Virus record (IMG/VR): IMGVR_UViG_3300032893_000129
Span: 1-41,327 of that record
Strand: one strand, 5' to 3'
Source of the DNA: a virus
DNA length: 41,327 bases
The notes beneath the pieces were generated by a model. That model saw only the letters and a list, made by a program, of their open reading frames with translations, was not told the DNA's origin and did no database searches. Shown in pieces: positions 1-41,327 of the stretch. The translations under genes were made by a program, and so were the position numbers. Numbering within the stretch: the stretch's first letter is position 1; the number at the start of each line of letters is the position of its first letter.

Positions 1-126
1 TAAACGGCTCCTCGATGGATTATGTCGCCCTTATCCATTTTAAACTTTGGTTCCATGACAGCTCCTTTTCTGTGGCATCGAAGCCACGGTTAAATATAAA
101 CAAAAATGCTTGATAGCGACGGCTCG
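1..126. repeat. Terminal direct repeat, left copy
   Basis: Bases 1-126 (TAAACGGCTCCTCGATGG...GATAGCGACGGCTCG) read identical to 41202-41327. Confidence 0.95.
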
Positions 127-704
127 CTATCAAGCGCGGCTCTCTTCGGGCCTGCTCTGACTCCAAGCGCGTTGGTCGAATAGTCAGAGTGAAAACAGGT
201 CAAAAAGGCATGACCAATTTCCGTTCAAAGTCCCATTAAAACCGAGTTAAATATTTTCGGTTTAGGTGCCTTTTACGGTGCAATCGCTGCGCCAAAACCG
301 AAAATGCGCTGGCCCCTAATTGCACTTAGCGGCCTGGTTTCGTGCGCGTGAATCGAATAGCCCGCGTGCGTTGATACGTGCGAGTCTAGAGCTACTCTAT
401 CGGCTACTCTAGGTCGTGCCTCGAGTCGCCGGGTGCCTCGGTAGGTGCAAAAATCGCGCCAAAAATCAAGTAATTCTCAATACTTAGTTTGTTTAGGTTG
501 AGGCAATTTGGGGGAGTGACGAAAAACGGCGCCAGGGCCGCAAAATGCGTCACTTTCCACGGCGCAAAAATCGTCACTTTCAACAATTTCGCCGATTTAG
601 CGGTTTGGCCCGGTCGGTGCAATGGTGCCGAACGTCCCGGCGGCATGGTGCCAAAGGTACAAAAACTAACCTGCACGATCGAATCGTGCGAAGAGGAGAA
701 TCCC
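57..704. promoter_or_regulatory. Divergent non-coding control region between the leftward early operon and the rightward arm
   Basis: There is no credible ORF across 648 nt. Dyads lie at 108-135 (11-bp perfect stem), 155-162/182-189 and 239-245/257-263. Direct repeats are GCTACTCTA (391-399, 403-411), GTGCCTCG (416-423, 433-440) and CAAAA(A)T(G)CGTCACTTTC (541-557, 565-581). Confidence 0.6.
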
Positions 705-2080: not shown

Positions 2081-4063
2081 ATGAAAACTTTTCTACTTGC
2101 TTTGATCTTCGCGGGTTTTCCTCTGGTCAGCAGCGCAATGCCGATCGACGCTCAAGCGCCGCCGAGCCTGGTTCTCGTGACCAACCCAAGCGACAATCCT
2201 GTCAACGTGACTGGTATAGTGACAGTGAATTCTCTGCCAAACAACACCGGCCAATTTCCAATGGCACAGTCAGTGAGTGTGGCGATTGCGAGTGATCAAT
2301 CGACTATCCCGATTTCCAATACGGACCTTCCACCGGGAGCCGCAACCGATGCAACTCTGTCTGCGATCAATGCGACGATTTCAAGCTTTCAGTCGGCTAA
2401 CCACACGGACTTAGTTCAAGTTGACACGGATCTTTTGGCAAACAATGCGATCGCAGCGGCGTTTCAGTCAGCAAATCACACTGACCTTTCCCAAGTGGAT
2501 ACTGATATTTTGGCCTTTAAGTCTGCGAATCATACTGATCTAAACCAAATTAATACGACTCTTGGAAGTCCTTTCCAAGCGGGAGGTTCAATTGGCAATG
2601 CGAGTTTTGGTATTTCGGGCACTCTCCCTGGCTTTGCTTCTACTCCTACTGTCAATCTTGGCACTATCGGTGCTGCTGCAACTGACGCAGAACTTGTTGC
2701 AATTAATGGAACATTGGGTTCACCAATGCAGAATTCGGGTGGATCGGTCACTGCGAATGCGGGGACGAACCTAAATACCTCAGCCTTAAATCTCGAGACA
2801 ACTCAGAGCAGCTTTAAGTCAGCAAATCACACGGACTTAAACCAAATCAATACGACGCTTGGAACTCCGATGCAAAACTCCGGCGGCTCAGTCACGGTCA
2901 ACGCCGGGACCAATCTCAATACGAGCGCGCTAAATCTTGAGACAACCCAGAGCGCTTTTAAGACTGCAAACCATAATGATTTTACGACTTTGTTTGGCGT
3001 ATTGCCGGCGTCTCTTGGTCAAAAAGCGATGGCCAATTCTTTTCCCATAGCTGTGGCAAGCGATCAATTGGCCGTTCTTACCAAGTATAATCCTGGCACG
3101 ATGGAACTCTTTGGAACATTGACTAGTTCGCAACGAGTTTTGCATATCAATCAACCCTTTTTCACGGGAACGTTAAGTAACTTAGTGACTCTTACCGTTG
3201 CGGGAACGGGTGCGGGATCCATCGCAAATGGGGAAGCAACGTTTTCAACCGGCACGACGACCGCTTCCAGTTCGAAAGGCGTATCTCTCACAAGTACACG
3301 GTATCAATCGGGCCAAGAGATATTTGCGATGTTCACCGCGGCGTTCACTTCGCCGGTAGCGGGTACCACGCAGAGAATTGGACTCTATGACGCCAACAAC
3401 GGTTTTTTCATTGGATATAGCGGGACCACGTTTGGAGTGTCCCTAAGGACCGGTGCCGCTGATACTACGGTTAACGCTGGAAGCTGGAACATCGATAATC
3501 TGACGGGAGCCGCCGGATCAAGGTTCACGAGTGCAGGTTCTCCCGTTGCCATTGATTTGACCAAACTCAATGTGTATCGCATTCGATTTGGTTGGCTTGG
3601 AGCTGCACCAATCTACTACGAAGTCTTGTCTCCCGATGGCGACTGGGTCACATTTCACGTTAATCGATATCCGAATAGCTCATCTCTTCCAAGCATTCAA
3701 AATCCAAACCTTCCGGTTACAGTTGAAGTTTCAAATGGTGCGACCACGAGCAACATTTCAATTGCGACGGCTTGCTGGGGAGCTGGTGGCGCTGGCGGCG
3801 AACTGGTTTGGAGTCCAAAGCACGTGGCGGGCGCAGCTACGACCGTGGTTAAATACAGTCCGGGCGTTCTTCATTCCGTGTGTCAAAATTCTCAAGCTGG
3901 AACGACAACGGTCTATGACAATACGGCCGGCAGCGGCACGATCATTGCCGCTATCAATACGGCGAGCTCGCCGTCTTGTCTGGTTTACGATGCTTATTTT
4001 TCAACGGGGCTTACGGTTGTGACGACGAATGCGAGCAACGACATTACCGTTAACTATCAGTGA
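2081..4063 (+). CDS. Secreted repeat protein (adhesin/fibre-like) with a C-terminal beta-sandwich-like region
   Basis: Sec-type N-terminus MKTFLLALIFAGFPLVSSA|MP. Repeated (F/K)SANHTDL..(V/I)(D/N)T units and two 48-aa repeats. Rich in NxT/S. The C-terminal roughly 350 aa is rich in predicted beta strand. Confidence 0.8.
   Translation: MKTFLLALIFAGFPLVSSAMPIDAQAPPSLVLVTNPSDNPVNVTGIVTVNSLPNNTGQFPMAQSVSVAIASDQSTIPISNTDLPPGAATDATLSAINATISSFQSANHTDLVQVDTDLLANNAIAAAFQSANHTDLSQVDTDILAFKSANHTDLNQINTTLGSPFQAGGSIGNASFGISGTLPGFASTPTVNLGTIGAAATDAELVAINGTLGSPMQNSGGSVTANAGTNLNTSALNLETTQSSFKSANHTDLNQINTTLGTPMQNSGGSVTVNAGTNLNTSALNLETTQSAFKTANHNDFTTLFGVLPASLGQKAMANSFPIAVASDQLAVLTKYNPGTMELFGTLTSSQRVLHINQPFFTGTLSNLVTLTVAGTGAGSIANGEATFSTGTTTASSSKGVSLTSTRYQSGQEIFAMFTAAFTSPVAGTTQRIGLYDANNGFFIGYSGTTFGVSLRTGAADTTVNAGSWNIDNLTGAAGSRFTSAGSPVAIDLTKLNVYRIRFGWLGAAPIYYEVLSPDGDWVTFHVNRYPNSSSLPSIQNPNLPVTVEVSNGATTSNISIATACWGAGGAGGELVWSPKHVAGAATTVVKYSPGVLHSVCQNSQAGTTTVYDNTAGSGTIIAAINTASSPSCLVYDAYFSTGLTVVTTNASNDITVNYQ
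2384..3001 (+). repeat. In-frame tandem repeats inside the 2081-4063 CDS
   Basis: There are five SANH(T/N)D units. The 48-codon units at 2714-2857 and 2858-3001 (LG(S/T)PMQNSGGSVT.NAGTNLNTSALNLETTQS.FK.ANH) differ mostly at third codon positions. Confidence 0.85.
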
Positions 4064-29037: not shown

Positions 29038-30000
29038 TTATCCTCCGAGCAATTCGCTCATTTGGTTTGCGATCTCGCCAGCGGCTTTGATTCGTCTCGA
29101 ATCAAGAAGCTGGGCATAGATCTTGGTTGTTTGTGTTGACTTGTGGTTCAACAATTCGCCGATCAAACCAAGGTCTGCGCCGTTTGACAAGCCCACCGTT
29201 GCAAAAGTTCGCCGGCAATCACGCATCCAAAGATCCGGACAGATGGCTTCTTGGCGAATCCGATCCCAAAGGCCATTGGGCATTGAGCATCCCATGAGTG
29301 AACCGTCCAAAGGCTTGCCAAGTTCCTTGATTTGCGCCATCAACATGGGTGGGAAGATCACTTGCTCGAACTCCCCCGTAATTTCCGTGCCTTTACCCTT
29401 GAAGGAAAGAATGCCGTAGCCATCTTGTTCTCTTAAATCACTCCACTGAGCGCGTTCAAGCGATCGCGGCCTAGCGCCGGTGAGCAAGAGCGCCAAGATA
29501 AACGTCGTTTTCCGCGGCCACCGGCTAGAATATTTGGCAATCAACGCGCCGATGCGTCGGAGCTCATCTGGGGTGGCATAGCGTTTTCGCTTCTTTTCGC
29601 GGAAGGCTTTGACGCGTTTGCACGGGTTATCGGCAATCCATTCCCGCTCCCAGGCGTGCTGAAACATACGGCTTAAAACCTCCAAGGCGCGATTTGCCTG
29701 AGTTGGGGTGCCTACGAGCCCAATATGCCAATCTCGCACAATGGCAGCCCTCATATCGTTTATATTGAATGATCCAAGTTCCGGTTCGATGAACACCTTG
29801 AAGCATCGTTCGACTTCGTACGACCAGCCGCTTTTTAAAAACCGATCGTTTGACCAATGCTCCGACCAGACGCGTTTAAAAAGCGCTGAAACGGTCATTG
29901 CTGCATTTTTAGGCACCGGACCGGTCAAAATACCCTCGAGCGTTCGAATCGTCGTGGCGACGGCTTTACGGCGGTTTAAATCGAATTGCATTTTTTCCAT
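29038..30000 (-). CDS. int: Tyrosine recombinase / phage integrase
   Basis: 'LLLTGARPRSL' (box I Arg), 'RDCRRTFAT', and 'LLNHKSTQTTKIYAQ' (His and the catalytic Tyr). Confidence 0.85.
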   Translation of the reverse strand: MEKMQFDLNRRKAVATTIRTLEGILTGPVPKNAAMTVSALFKRVWSEHWSNDRFLKSGWSYEVERCFKVFIEPELGSFNINDMRAAIVRDWHIGLVGTPTQANRALEVLSRMFQHAWEREWIADNPCKRVKAFREKKRKRYATPDELRRIGALIAKYSSRWPRKTTFILALLLTGARPRSLERAQWSDLREQDGYGILSFKGKGTEITGEFEQVIFPPMLMAQIKELGKPLDGSLMGCSMPNGLWDRIRQEAICPDLWMRDCRRTFATVGLSNGADLGLIGELLNHKSTQTTKIYAQLLDSRRIKAAGEIANQMSELLGG

Positions 30001-34815: not shown

Positions 34816-35388
34816 TTATGAGAACAAAGCACCGGCGTCAGCAGCACCCCCCGTGCCGCCGCCACCGGTTTCAACAGGAGCAAATGCATCGGTGACACGC
34901 ACGACATTGCCGAGCGGATCGCCGTCTCGCACGAGCTGAACGTGGCCAAGACCAGCGCTCACTCCGCGATTTCCTTTTTGATCGTAAGCGTAAAAGTTGA
35001 TCGACGCGCGAACGAAGCAGCCGGCATAAATTTTTGCCGGATCCAAGATTTCCTGCACGTTTTGGTCAACCACCGTTGGCTTGCGTTCAGATTTCAAGTT
35101 CATGAAGATGCCACCTGGCTCATGGCCATCGGGCAACTTCCCGTCTTTTTCCCGCTCTTCGTGCTTGCGGAAAGGATTTTTAAGCGGTTTTGGCCACTTT
35201 GATGGATCGGTTCCCCATTTCTTCTCGATCGCAGCTTGTGCTGCTTTTTGCATAGCGGTTAAATCGGTGCCCTTCGGAAAAAGTGCTACCAATGAAAACT
35301 CTTCTTTGCCATTGAGCTTGTTTAACTCGGCTTTAAAGAGTTTGGGATATGAGAGCCGGAATACCGGCGTTGTTACTGTGGTGGACAT
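34816..35388 (-). CDS. ssDNA-binding protein, DUF2815 / T7 gp2.5-like
   Basis: 'TPVFRLSYPKLF...' N-terminus, 'GCFVRASINFYAYD.KGNRGVSAGLGHVQLV.DG.PLG' signature, and a Gly-rich tail. Confidence 0.8.
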   Translation of the reverse strand: MSTTVTTPVFRLSYPKLFKAELNKLNGKEEFSLVALFPKGTDLTAMQKAAQAAIEKKWGTDPSKWPKPLKNPFRKHEEREKDGKLPDGHEPGGIFMNLKSERKPTVVDQNVQEILDPAKIYAGCFVRASINFYAYDQKGNRGVSAGLGHVQLVRDGDPLGNVVRVTDAFAPVETGGGGTGGAADAGALFS

Positions 35389-39286: not shown

Positions 39287-39496
39287 TTAAAAGCCAGAAT
39301 CTTTTTTCAATTGCCTACGGGCTGCGCGGGCGAGGTGGATGAGTTGCTTCCAAGTTGCAGTCTTAACGGCGATCATGTCAACCACATGATTTTGATATCT
39401 CCAACGCATTTGGATCACTTGCTGTGGCATCTTCGGGTCTTTATTTACTGGCAGATTGACAATACGAGCTTTGAACTCGGCTTTAGGGCGGCTCAT
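39287..39496 (-). CDS. Hypothetical protein (69 aa)
   Basis: ATGA overlap with the RuvC-like gene stop (39493-39496). Confidence 0.5.
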   Translation of the reverse strand: MSRPKAEFKARIVNLPVNKDPKMPQQVIQMRWRYQNHVVDMIAVKTATWKQLIHLARAARRQLKKDSGF

Positions 39497-40014
39497 GACA
39501 GTTGCCCACCATAAACGGCCAAGAGTGCCGCTTCAGCTCGATCATGGTGCTTTTTTAGCTTGAAATAGTCTTGGCGATCGGGAAAAAGCTGCCGGGCCTT
39601 CTCAAGAGAGCGGTTTTTATCCCGCGTGAGGCCCATGGATGCCTTCCAAACAGAGGGCTGCGGTTGGAGGATTGGCAGGAGGTGGGCTGCCAAAACACCG
39701 ATGCAAAGGCCGGTAGTGCGTCCAAACAAGAAGGTTGAGGAGACTCCCTGACCTGGCATCGAGTGAACGCATTCCACCACGGCCAAACGCACGGATTTCG
39801 CAAACTCATCGACGATACGCGCCAAACCATAATGGTCCAACGTTTTGGTCCCGTCGAATTTATCCTCGATCACCGGCATATCGAATAATTCATAGAGAAT
39901 CTTGGTTTTAGGGGAATAAATTGCAATTGCACCGGTGATTCCTGGATCAATTGCCAAAACCAAGGAGCGATTGGATTGAGTTTCTTCAGCTCGTCGAGGT
40001 TGTAAATCGTTCAT
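39493..40014 (-). CDS. RuvC-like Holliday junction resolvase
   Basis: 'LAIDPGITGAIAI', 'VVECVHSMPGQGVSSTFLFG' and 'HHDRAEAALLAVYG'. Confidence 0.85.
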   Translation of the reverse strand: MNDLQPRRAEETQSNRSLVLAIDPGITGAIAIYSPKTKILYELFDMPVIEDKFDGTKTLDHYGLARIVDEFAKSVRLAVVECVHSMPGQGVSSTFLFGRTTGLCIGVLAAHLLPILQPQPSVWKASMGLTRDKNRSLEKARQLFPDRQDYFKLKKHHDRAEAALLAVYGGQLS

Positions 40015-40059: not shown

Positions 40060-40370
40060 TTTGTTCCAACGTTCCAGGCGTTCCGGACGCGTGTTCTAAG
40101 AAGGGCACACGTATAAGTATATGATATTAATAGGGATATTTAAATATTCTAGGCAAACTAGGTAAAATGGCACTTTTATTCTTATAATAAAAAGAAAGTA
40201 TAAAGCTAATGTTAAATACATGAGTATTTTTATAAGAATATATTATTTTACTTAGTTTACTTAGAATAATAATAAAAATAATATATAAGTAATAGAAATT
40301 ATTAAGAAATTTTTGTTCCGTGTAAAAATTAAATTGGATAGAAATGTACTAGGTAAAGGCGGAACACCGA
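40060..40370. promoter_or_regulatory. AT-rich ORF-free island flanked by GTTCC iterons (candidate origin / promoter hub)
   Basis: Hand counts give 25%, 17% and 10% G+C for the 60-nt lines 40121-40180, 40181-40240 and 40241-40300. GTTCC lies at 40064, 40072, 40081 and 40316, with GGAAC at 40362. See the findings for the internal repeats. Confidence 0.6.
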
Positions 40371-40416
40371 GGAAATTTAATCCGGGGAAATGGGTAAAAA
40401 CCGCATTTGCTTAAAA

Positions 40417-40632
40417 TTAGGGAGCTCTTGGCTTGCGCGCCGGGTGGCTTTTTGGCAGTGGCGCTTGGTCGTCGCAGTGACGGACTCGGTGGTTTTCAAG
40501 GTGAAGATACCGGATCTTGATGATATCGAGCGTTACAAACGGGGTCGTGATAACCCCGTCGAACGGTTTGCCGCAGACCGGGCAAACTGAGTGTTTTTTG
40601 GATAATTGAGAATCGTTGTCGTTATCGCTCAT
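40417..40632 (-). CDS. Small CxxC (zinc-ribbon-like) protein
   Basis: The ATG at 40632 shares ATGA with the upstream stop. The protein carries 'CPVCGKPF' and a later 'HRVRHC'. Confidence 0.45.
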   Translation of the reverse strand: MSDNDNDSQLSKKHSVCPVCGKPFDGVITTPFVTLDIIKIRYLHLENHRVRHCDDQAPLPKSHPARKPRAP

Positions 40633-40754
40633 GGGCCATCCAGCCAGCTGAAAATCTCGCCGATAAACTTGCATAGCGCTCGAATGGCCAAAGCCCAGAC
40701 AACGATTCCAATTGGAACGAAGAAACACCAAGTGATTGCGTTTGCGATGGTCAT
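40629..40754 (-). CDS. 41-aa single-pass membrane peptide
   Basis: The ATG at 40754 shares ATGA with the upstream stop. It reads MTIANAITWCFFVPIGIVVWALAIRALCKFIGEIFSWLDGP. Confidence 0.45.
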   Translation of the reverse strand: MTIANAITWCFFVPIGIVVWALAIRALCKFIGEIFSWLDGP

Positions 40755-41257
40755 GGGATTCTCACCGGCATTAAAAGTCCGATTAACGTGTCCGAAACAG
40801 AAAGCCCATCGGTTATGAGAATGGCAGACCAAACTAGAGAATCATTTTTTCCCTTTTCCGGTGCTCTCGCAAAACAATTGCCCATTCTCAAGATTGGAAC
40901 ATACATGGGTTGCACGCCGATCTCGAATGATTCGTCTTCCGCTTCAAAGACGTAGGCCATTATTTCATCCATGTTGTTTCGGAACTTTACTCCGATTGGC
41001 CGATCTTTAAGTTTTTTGTAAGCAGAGAGATCGTGATGAATGTGGCCTTTGATGAGTTGATCTAGATTGGCGCATTCTCTAGTTAAGCAGAGCTCGCCAA
41101 AATCGTATCTTCCTTCTGTATGCTCCGCAATCCACTTGGAGAGTGCTTTGGGCATCAATGACGTTCGATCGTTTCGCACCAACCAATGGCCGTTTGTGGT
41201 GTAAACGGCTCCTCGATGGATTATGTCGCCCTTATCCATTTTAAACTTTGGTTCCAT
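40751..41257 (-). CDS. Mini beta-clamp (DnaN)-like protein, first gene of the leftward early operon
   Basis: AAGGAG lies 5 nt before the ATG at 41257. Four motifs occur in DnaN order: 'TTNGHWLV', 'EGRYDF', 'EIGVQPMYVPILRM' and a C-terminal 'LLMPVRIP'. Confidence 0.55.
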   Translation of the reverse strand: MEPKFKMDKGDIIHRGAVYTTNGHWLVRNDRTSLMPKALSKWIAEHTEGRYDFGELCLTRECANLDQLIKGHIHHDLSAYKKLKDRPIGVKFRNNMDEIMAYVFEAEDESFEIGVQPMYVPILRMGNCFARAPEKGKNDSLVWSAILITDGLSVSDTLIGLLMPVRIP

Positions 41258-41327
41258 GACAGCTCCTTTTCTGTGGCATCGAAGCCACGGTTAAATATAA
41301 ACAAAAATGCTTGATAGCGACGGCTCG
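41202..41327. repeat. Terminal direct repeat, right copy
   Basis: Identical to 1-126. It contains the start codon and first 18-19 codons of the minus-strand gene 40751-41257. Confidence 0.95.

Follow-up and report, generated by a model that had tools for sequence, protein, structure and literature searches.

A candidate pocket-only relative of the bacterial beta sliding clamp encoded at the head of an early phage operon

The window analysed here is the complete 41,327-nucleotide stretch of the viral record IMGVR_UViG_3300032893_000129, and the gene under study, located close to its right-hand end, encodes a 168-residue protein that we refer to as the mini-clamp and that probably represents a diverged and shortened homologue of the bacterial beta sliding clamp DnaN. 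The gene lies on the minus strand behind a strong ribosome-binding site and is coupled through an ATGA overlap to a gene for a small hydrophobic peptide, which is coupled in the same manner to a gene for a CxxC protein. This arrangement was described in the initial annotation of the window and is present in full in the sequence. The features at the locus are as follows.

40751-41257, minus strand: mini-clamp open reading frame (ORF), 168 residues, stop codon within the coordinates; probable diverged, shortened beta-clamp homologue ('pocket-only mini clamp').
41263-41270, minus strand: ribosome-binding site AAAAGGAG, 5 nt before the mini-clamp ATG, read from the sequence.
40629-40754, minus strand: gene for a 41-residue hydrophobic peptide, its ATG overlapping the mini-clamp stop codon (ATGA).
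40417-40632, minus strand: gene for a putative 71-residue CPVC protein, its start overlapping the stop codon of the 41-residue peptide gene (ATGA).
1-126, identical to 41202-41327: exact terminal direct repeat of 126 bp, the assembly overlap of a circular genome.
108-135, minus strand: hairpin with a GC-rich 12-bp stem followed by a T-run, ATTTTTGTTT, approximately 50-80 nt upstream of the mini-clamp ATG and on the same strand.

The terminal repeat is exact over its 126 bp, and the window therefore represents a circular genome of 41,201 bp; the features near the window ends are therefore read across the junction. Via the repeat, the mini-clamp ATG is also found at position 56, and the upstream region runs on from position 127. 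In an independent assembly of the same phage, some 650 nt of intergenic DNA lie upstream of the mini-clamp gene and face the small terminase gene, which bears out the earlier placement of the mini-clamp gene as the first of a leftward early operon. The hairpin ahead of the gene resembles a terminator or an operator. The 41-residue ORF is likewise called in an independent assembly; the 71-residue CPVC ORF was left uncalled by the gene caller in the Logan assembly (L024, 3629-4244), despite its ATGA coupling. Neither the 41-residue peptide nor the CPVC protein is conserved beside other members of the mini-clamp family.

The mini-clamp belongs to a real, previously unannotated phage family that is known from metagenomes only. 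An exhaustive phmmer search of 1.84 billion representatives recovers 50 family representatives of 143-215 residues that share 30-42% identity, and a second database search returns 24 more or less full-length small proteins of 149-184 residues, which are unnamed, metagenomic and carry no Pfam domains. A tblastn search with the mini-clamp finds nothing in 50,697 phage records, a word-indexed protein search returns the mini-clamp protein itself as the only match, and no relatives were found with a narrower alignment in 185,579 species genomes or IMG/VR. A 37-member alignment of the family, hereafter A1, is the basis of the family profile, of the residue counts given below and of the consensus PKFK..K..RLY.T..Y..NGHWL..R...PK.L..L...G.Y..G....PD....IPKRDGY..L...P.GV.F...I.AY.F....F.IGV.P.YVPLLRLG..FAK...SPI..L....LN..L.AVVMP.R.

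The relationship to DnaN emerges from profile-profile comparison. When A1 is compared using hhalign with nine full-length DnaN sequences (that of E. coli and eight diverse ones from phage-collection records), A1 columns 118-175 align with DnaN 308-367 at a probability of 75.5% (P 2.4e-5, score 42). The probability increases to 78.4% when four short phage clamps, which are described below, are added to the DnaN set and to 92.5% when ten are added (P 5e-7, score 53.3), and with a permissive threshold the colinear match spans DnaN residues ~142 to 366. The corresponding null scores are 12-16 for the reversed profile, on average 12.9 with maxima of 19-26 for column shuffles, and on average 17.7 with a maximum of 29.9 when blocks of 12 columns are reordered such that the motifs are kept and their order is lost. 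In addition, four non-overlapping pieces of A1 were searched separately against DnaN, with the following best matches.

A1 residues 1-48: DnaN 170-180, P 0.26.
A1 residues 49-95: DnaN 236-252, P 0.015.
A1 residues 96-140: DnaN 313-323, P 0.0099.
A1 residues 141-168: DnaN 353-366, P 2.5e-4.

All four pieces have their top match at the site expected from colinearity (Fisher combined p = 1.2e-5). Because the hhalign scores lie far above the shuffles and the fragments are colinear, we consider it highly probable that the mini-clamp family is remotely homologous to the bacterial beta sliding clamp and greatly reduced in length, with the homology strongest for the C-terminal 55-90 residues. Within the C-terminal 110 residues the predicted order of secondary-structure elements is the same as in DnaN, and conserved counterparts are found for DnaN residues G174, H175, L177, P242, V247, Y323, V360, M362, P363, M364 and R365.

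The initial annotation singled out four DnaN-like motifs, three of which (TTNGHWLV compared with ATDGHRLA, FEIGVQPMYVP with MEIGFNVSYV and LLMPVRI with VVMPMRL) are in register in the profile-profile alignment. The remaining motif, EGRYDF (residues 48-53), was taken as the counterpart of the linker between domains II and III and is out of register, with the DnaN linker DGRFPDYRRVLPK aligning instead to residues ~59-70 (TRECANLDQLI-K). EGRYDF is part of a family-specific G.Y motif that has no counterpart in DnaN. Placing the second motif in this register also alters its distance from the first, from the ~26 residues originally given to ~40 residues. The four segments of the mini-clamp with counterparts in DnaN are the following.

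41180-41194, minus strand: NGHWL, residues 22-26, counterpart of DnaN D173-G174-H175-R176-L177 in pocket subsite I.
41048-41071, minus strand: ANLDQLIK, residues 63-70, counterpart of the DnaN II-III linker P242-D-Y-R-R246-V247-L-P-K.
40895-40924, minus strand: EIGVQPMYVP, residues 112-121, counterpart of DnaN E316-I-G-F-N320-V-S-Y323-V-L, with the invariant Y119 corresponding to Y323 in subsite II.
40754-40783, minus strand: IGLLMPVRIP, residues 159-168, counterpart of the DnaN C-terminus V360-V-M362-P363-M364-R365-L.

Conservation across A1 is pronounced within these segments. In the NGHWL columns the Gly is present in 35, the His in 32 and the Trp in 33 of the 37 members, whereas the C-terminal segment contains the invariant M163 and P164 together with R166, which is found in 33/37. 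The linker counterpart has the family consensus PDxxxxIPK, with the same spacing as P242-D-x3-V247-L-P-K, and has decayed to ANLDQLI-K in the window copy. In DnaN, the peptide-binding pocket comprises a subsite I, formed by R152, L155, T172, G174, H175, R176, L177, P242, R246, V247, V360 and M362, and a subsite II, formed by H175, N320, Y323, V344, M362, P363, M364 and R365 (PMC11139829). Based on the alignment, the three invariant residues of the family, Y119, M163 and P164, correspond to pocket residues Y323, M362 and P363, and the family consensus has an identical residue or a conservative replacement at 14 of the 18 pocket positions, the others that are kept being the counterparts of G174, H175, L177, V247, V360, M364, R365, R152, L155, T172 and P242. 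We infer that selection has kept the four segments that build the pocket for clamp-binding motifs (CBMs) between domains II and III.

The mini-clamp has 168 residues compared with the 366 residues of the three-domain DnaN, and relative to DnaN ~142-366 the alignment places deletions of approximately 70 residues in at least six places. Missing by alignment are domain I, DnaN residues 253-271 and ~292-302, and shorter pieces of domain II, and the first half of domain III is otherwise much reduced; what remains, in shortened form, are elements drawn from domain II, from the II-III linker and from the second half of domain III. The initial description of the protein as domain III plus a fragment of domain II is thus not borne out, as the alignment begins near DnaN 142, with domain II elements kept and the first half of domain III partly lost and otherwise shortened. 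The segment ~292-302 is the acidic interface strand, and we take E298-E304 to be a domain III stretch of the head-to-tail dimer interface. The segment 253-271 is helix alpha-1 of domain III and extends up to the interface residues I272/L273, the mutation of which gives a monomeric clamp variant (cited in PMC11139829). With domain I and the interface segments of domain III missing, the mini-clamp should be unable to close a canonical ring or to pair canonically with host beta.

The monomer structure predicted by AlphaFold2 with the family alignment is compact, with a pLDDT of 93.7 and a pTM of 0.88 (the single-sequence prediction has a pLDDT of 30). In this model the elements of residues 56-168 follow the order b-a-b-b-b-b-a-b-b-b, and a remnant with the order b-b-b-a-b lies ahead of them. 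The former is what we take to be the order of elements of a single clamp domain (2POL topology), such that the predicted order fits one clamp domain and agrees with the alignment.

Across the family, eight contigs of unrelated phages carry the mini-clamp gene at the promoter-proximal end of an early operon. In the window and in the loci L003 and L022 it leads the genes that diverge from the terminase module, and in L007 and L009 it is the first gene after the primase. No conserved gene neighbour of the family members was found. The phage of the window encodes PolA, a primase-polymerase, an Enc34-type single-stranded DNA-binding protein (SSB), a DUF2800 nuclease, SNF2 and an integrase, and its distant relatives are the Ralstonia phages C22, RpY1 and DU_RP_II together with a freshwater metagenomic podovirus (primase identity ~40-43%). 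The closest cultured relatives, whose replisome genes are homologous, have no member of the mini-clamp family, which fits an accessory protein directed against a universal host target.

Since the only strongly conserved surface is the client-docking pocket, and since it is found in a stand-alone early accessory protein, we favour, with a probability of roughly one half, the reading that the mini-clamp is an accessory early CBM-binding module, acting as a decoy or an adaptor rather than as a ring or poison subunit. Of the three functions put forward in the initial annotation, it is the decoy that fits best with a conserved core that corresponds to the peptide-binding pocket. In this scenario, the mini-clamp would be the first product after infection, a soluble CBM-pocket module that stands alone, and its pocket would dock QLxLF-type peptides or C-terminal LF tips. 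It would thereby compete with the host clamp for Pol III alpha, the clamp-loader subunit delta, Hda, translesion polymerases and MutS/MutL, such that host replication and repair would be diverted or silenced while the replisome of phage PolA, primase-polymerase and SSB is at work. A close alternative is that the same pocket is used for recruiting, that is, as an adaptor.

The main rival explanation is such an adaptor in the replisome, or a processivity subunit that forms no ring, like herpesvirus UL42; the pocket would bind a tail of PolA, the primase-polymerase or SSB and tether it at the phage fork. We regard this explanation as possible but distinctly less probable than the decoy. In the window, L007 and L009, PolA, primase-polymerase, Enc34-type SSB and DUF2800 nuclease are encoded near the mini-clamp gene, and in Burkholderia phage BcepC6B a short clamp directly follows PolA. 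The SSBs of the first three loci (window, 34816-35388, minus strand; L007, 730-1314; L009, 2681-3277) have flexible, Gly-rich tails with hydrophobic-Phe tips (ALFS, SIF and DDPFAA, respectively) that recall the C-terminal tip of bacterial SSB and the LF anchor of CBMs; the Enc34-type SSBs of L002, 7918-8481, and L001, 23338-23892, have flexible tails with tips of this kind as well. However, similar tips (DDLFN and GMFD) are present in relatives with homologous primase, PolA and SSB that lack a mini-clamp gene (Ralstonia phage C22, MW202898). No QLxLF-type CBM was found in the phage PolA or at the primase termini, the single QxxLF match near the primase start being neither terminal nor common to the primases of related loci. 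Moreover, some family members come from loci in which the visible part of the contig shows no polymerase, and in the window the mini-clamp gene is at a distance from the replication module and behind a distinct, AT-rich region that resembles a promoter.

Non-ring factors with a clamp fold are an established class (PMC3201878). UL42 and UL44 of herpesviruses show that a protein derived from a clamp need not encircle DNA to function and can bind a partner peptide in the equivalent pocket, as the mini-clamp would, but they belong to the PCNA rather than the beta lineage and possess two full domains and a basic DNA-binding face. In contrast, there is no consistent positive charge in the mini-clamp family, where whole-protein isoelectric points vary from 5.2 to 9.6 (median 7.8; window protein 6.6) and are not raised as is typical of direct DNA binders, and no polymerase tail motif was found.

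We consider it unlikely that the mini-clamp is no relative of the clamp at all and instead represents a new fold of unrelated function in which short motifs (NGHW, Y-V-P, MP-R) resemble DnaN by chance or convergence. Several results weigh against descent from DnaN or against a canonical pocket. The homology is visible to profile-profile comparison only, and the N-terminal half is individually weak (fragment P values of 0.26 and 0.015). Searched alone, the mini-clamp protein matches nothing in Pfam, PHROG, NCBIfam or the PDB sequences, even at E = 10, and BLASTP against E. coli DnaN alone gives a non-significant E of 28. None of the 37 members of A1 matches the Pfam clamp models at E <= 1, so that the DNA_pol3_beta profiles, the comparison suggested at the outset, are matched neither by the protein (E <= 10) nor by its family (E <= 1). 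The family profile has no matches in the PDB and yields ~3 bits against DnaN with HMMER with all filters off. The main evidence against homology comes from structural comparison, as Foldseek, likewise suggested in the initial annotation, returns nothing for the confident model at E <= 1e-3 in either the PDB or BFVD; the 50 listed PDB matches include no clamp, the top PDB matches being OB-like fragments with TM-scores of at most 0.25. The best matches in BFVD (A0A8S5QG59, 180 residues, and A0A8S5SE67, 228 residues; TM-score 0.39-0.44, probability 0.69-0.82) are uncharacterised phage proteins with lengths in the range of short clamps. As for the pocket, a conserved Trp stands in place of R176, the positions matching R246, N320 and V344 vary among members, and the window copy lacks equivalents of R152 and P242; given these substitutions at R176, R246 and N320 and the loss of R152 and P242 from the window copy, the ligand specificity may differ from that for canonical CBMs. 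Finally, the finding that columns aligned to the pocket exceed the remaining aligned columns in conservation (Mann-Whitney p = 0.005), which speaks for the pocket, comes from a test that is partly circular, as conserved columns drive the alignment.

Chance or convergence would nevertheless have to account for an hhalign score of 53.3 that far exceeds every shuffle, block reordering included, for four independent fragments that are colinear on DnaN, for a predicted order of secondary structure elements that agrees with a clamp domain, and for a bridging class of short clamps that retain the same segments and are clearly DnaN-like (E 1e-20 to PDB clamps). In view of the deletion of ~70 residues in at least six places, we do not take the Foldseek result as refuting homology. 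Thus, the original proposal of a truncated DnaN relative is supported by hhalign (75.5-92.5%) and the colinear fragments, and is not supported by Pfam, PDB sequences or Foldseek.

A clamp poison that pairs with the host beta monomer or a self-assembled ring (for example, of four copies of 1.5 domains), both proposed in the initial annotation, would be in keeping with derivation from a ring protein, but is very improbable, and the poison subunit is rejected, as the protein lacks domain I, the counterparts of the domain III interface (around I272/L273 and E298-E304) fall in alignment gaps with too few residues left to hold them, and the monomer model is compact.

The reading of the mini-clamp as a CBM-binding module bears on a class of short clamps that has already been noticed in phages. 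A tblastn search of phages with E. coli DnaN reveals many short DnaN-like genes, including those for Salmonella phage Skate gp41 (178 residues), Burkholderia phage BcepC6B gp31 (171 residues), Vibrio phage NVP1098O_51 (192 residues) and Pseudomonas phage zjk6_34 (224 residues), and these four match phrog_3007 at 9e-30 to 8e-61. The short clamps of PHROG 3007 comprise >1,200 clusters, have weak Pfam DNA_pol3_beta_2 matches and match PDB clamps at E 1e-20; they delete DnaN residues 1-~130 and 254-312 while keeping 16 of the 18 pocket residues (Skate gp41). PHROG 3007 and several GenBank records are labelled 'RusA-like Holliday junction resolvase' (for example, L010, 1483-2019, and L011, 1579-2094), a label that looks like a propagated mis-annotation because members of PHROG 3007 match DnaN in Pfam and the PDB. 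Five 'shorter' phage polIII-beta homologues were recorded in 2011 by Kazlauskas & Venclovas (PMC3201878), and these correspond to PHROG 3007; therefore, the statement in the initial annotation that no phage function had been described for a partial clamp needs amending in that such proteins had been noted, and holds in that their function is uncharacterised. We found no functional study of short phage clamps in the literature.

The mini-clamp family resembles PHROG 3007 in being phage-encoded and functionally uncharacterised, without domain I and with the pocket segments kept, the PHROG 3007 proteins having lengths of 170-225 residues. The two are nonetheless distinct. Members of PHROG 3007 are plainly DnaN-like, with domain II nearly whole and residues 254-312 gone as one block, whereas in the mini-clamp domain II is shaved, several smaller deletions are distributed over both domains and part of 279-312 is kept; unlike PHROG 3007, the mini-clamp family also keeps ~40 residues between the linker and the IGV motif. 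The hhalign comparisons place the family closer to DnaN of full length (P 2.4e-5); the short clamps are more distant (P 3e-4 to 2e-3), with a probability of 13-40% for A1 against the short clamps alone. None of the 37 members matches the phrog_3007 profile at E <= 1, and a subfamily of PHROG 3007 is ruled out by this absent match together with the different deletion pattern. Rather, the mini-clamp family appears to be a second case of reduction to this core, eroded further than PHROG 3007, and, judged by its sequence, is a new, highly diverged variant of the already noticed, uncharacterised short phage homologues of the beta clamp. The new insight, drawn from the alignments, is that the part which the short clamps retain is the peptide-binding pocket.

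Examples of phage proteins directed at the clamp of the host are Twort gp168 and G1 gp240 of Staphylococcus phages. These are similarly early proteins that interfere with the network of the host clamp and its clients, but they are unrelated in sequence and bind the clamp itself, whereas the mini-clamp would imitate the docking site and bind the clients.

Several other observations were made along the genome. The region 40100-40400, which separates the CPVC gene from the following operon gene (39493-40014), contains ~300 bp with a GC content of 20-23% (50% for the genome) and five sigma-70-like promoter matches, and may be either a second block of early promoters or an origin of replication. 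A tyrosine-integrase gene (29038-30000, minus strand; Phage_integrase E 1.9e-8) ends the replication operon of this PolA-encoding phage, and the same integrase arrangement is found in L007 and L009, with the mini-clamp gene a few genes upstream of the integrase. Straight after the small terminase gene lies a 660-residue ORF (2081-4063, plus strand), which is unusual at this location; its N-terminus is signal-peptide-like (MKTFLLALIFAGFPLVSSA) and it contains near-tandem internal repeats (FKSANHTDLNQINTTLG.PMQNSGGSVT.NAGTNLNTSALNLETTQS).

The beta-clamp pocket is the hub that tethers all bacterial polymerases and several repair and regulatory proteins to DNA, and is an antibiotic target. We tentatively suggest, while regarding it as doubtful in its full form, that on at least two occasions phages have reduced the host clamp to its docking pocket alone, used as a first-early-gene decoy that soaks up CBM clients. 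The case illustrates that a family missed by HMMER, Pfam and Foldseek can have its origin recovered by profile-profile comparison. If the suggestion is correct, the short phage polIII-beta homologues, which have been in the databases since at least 2011 and are partly mislabelled as RusA-like, would gain a testable function, and a natural soluble pocket-only domain of ~160 residues would provide a minimal scaffold for studying the pocket and screening its ligands. The mini-clamp would then be a phage effector of a new kind, which imitates the docking site instead of inhibiting the clamp, and would embody a strategy of host takeover or anti-repair aimed not at the clamp but at its clients.

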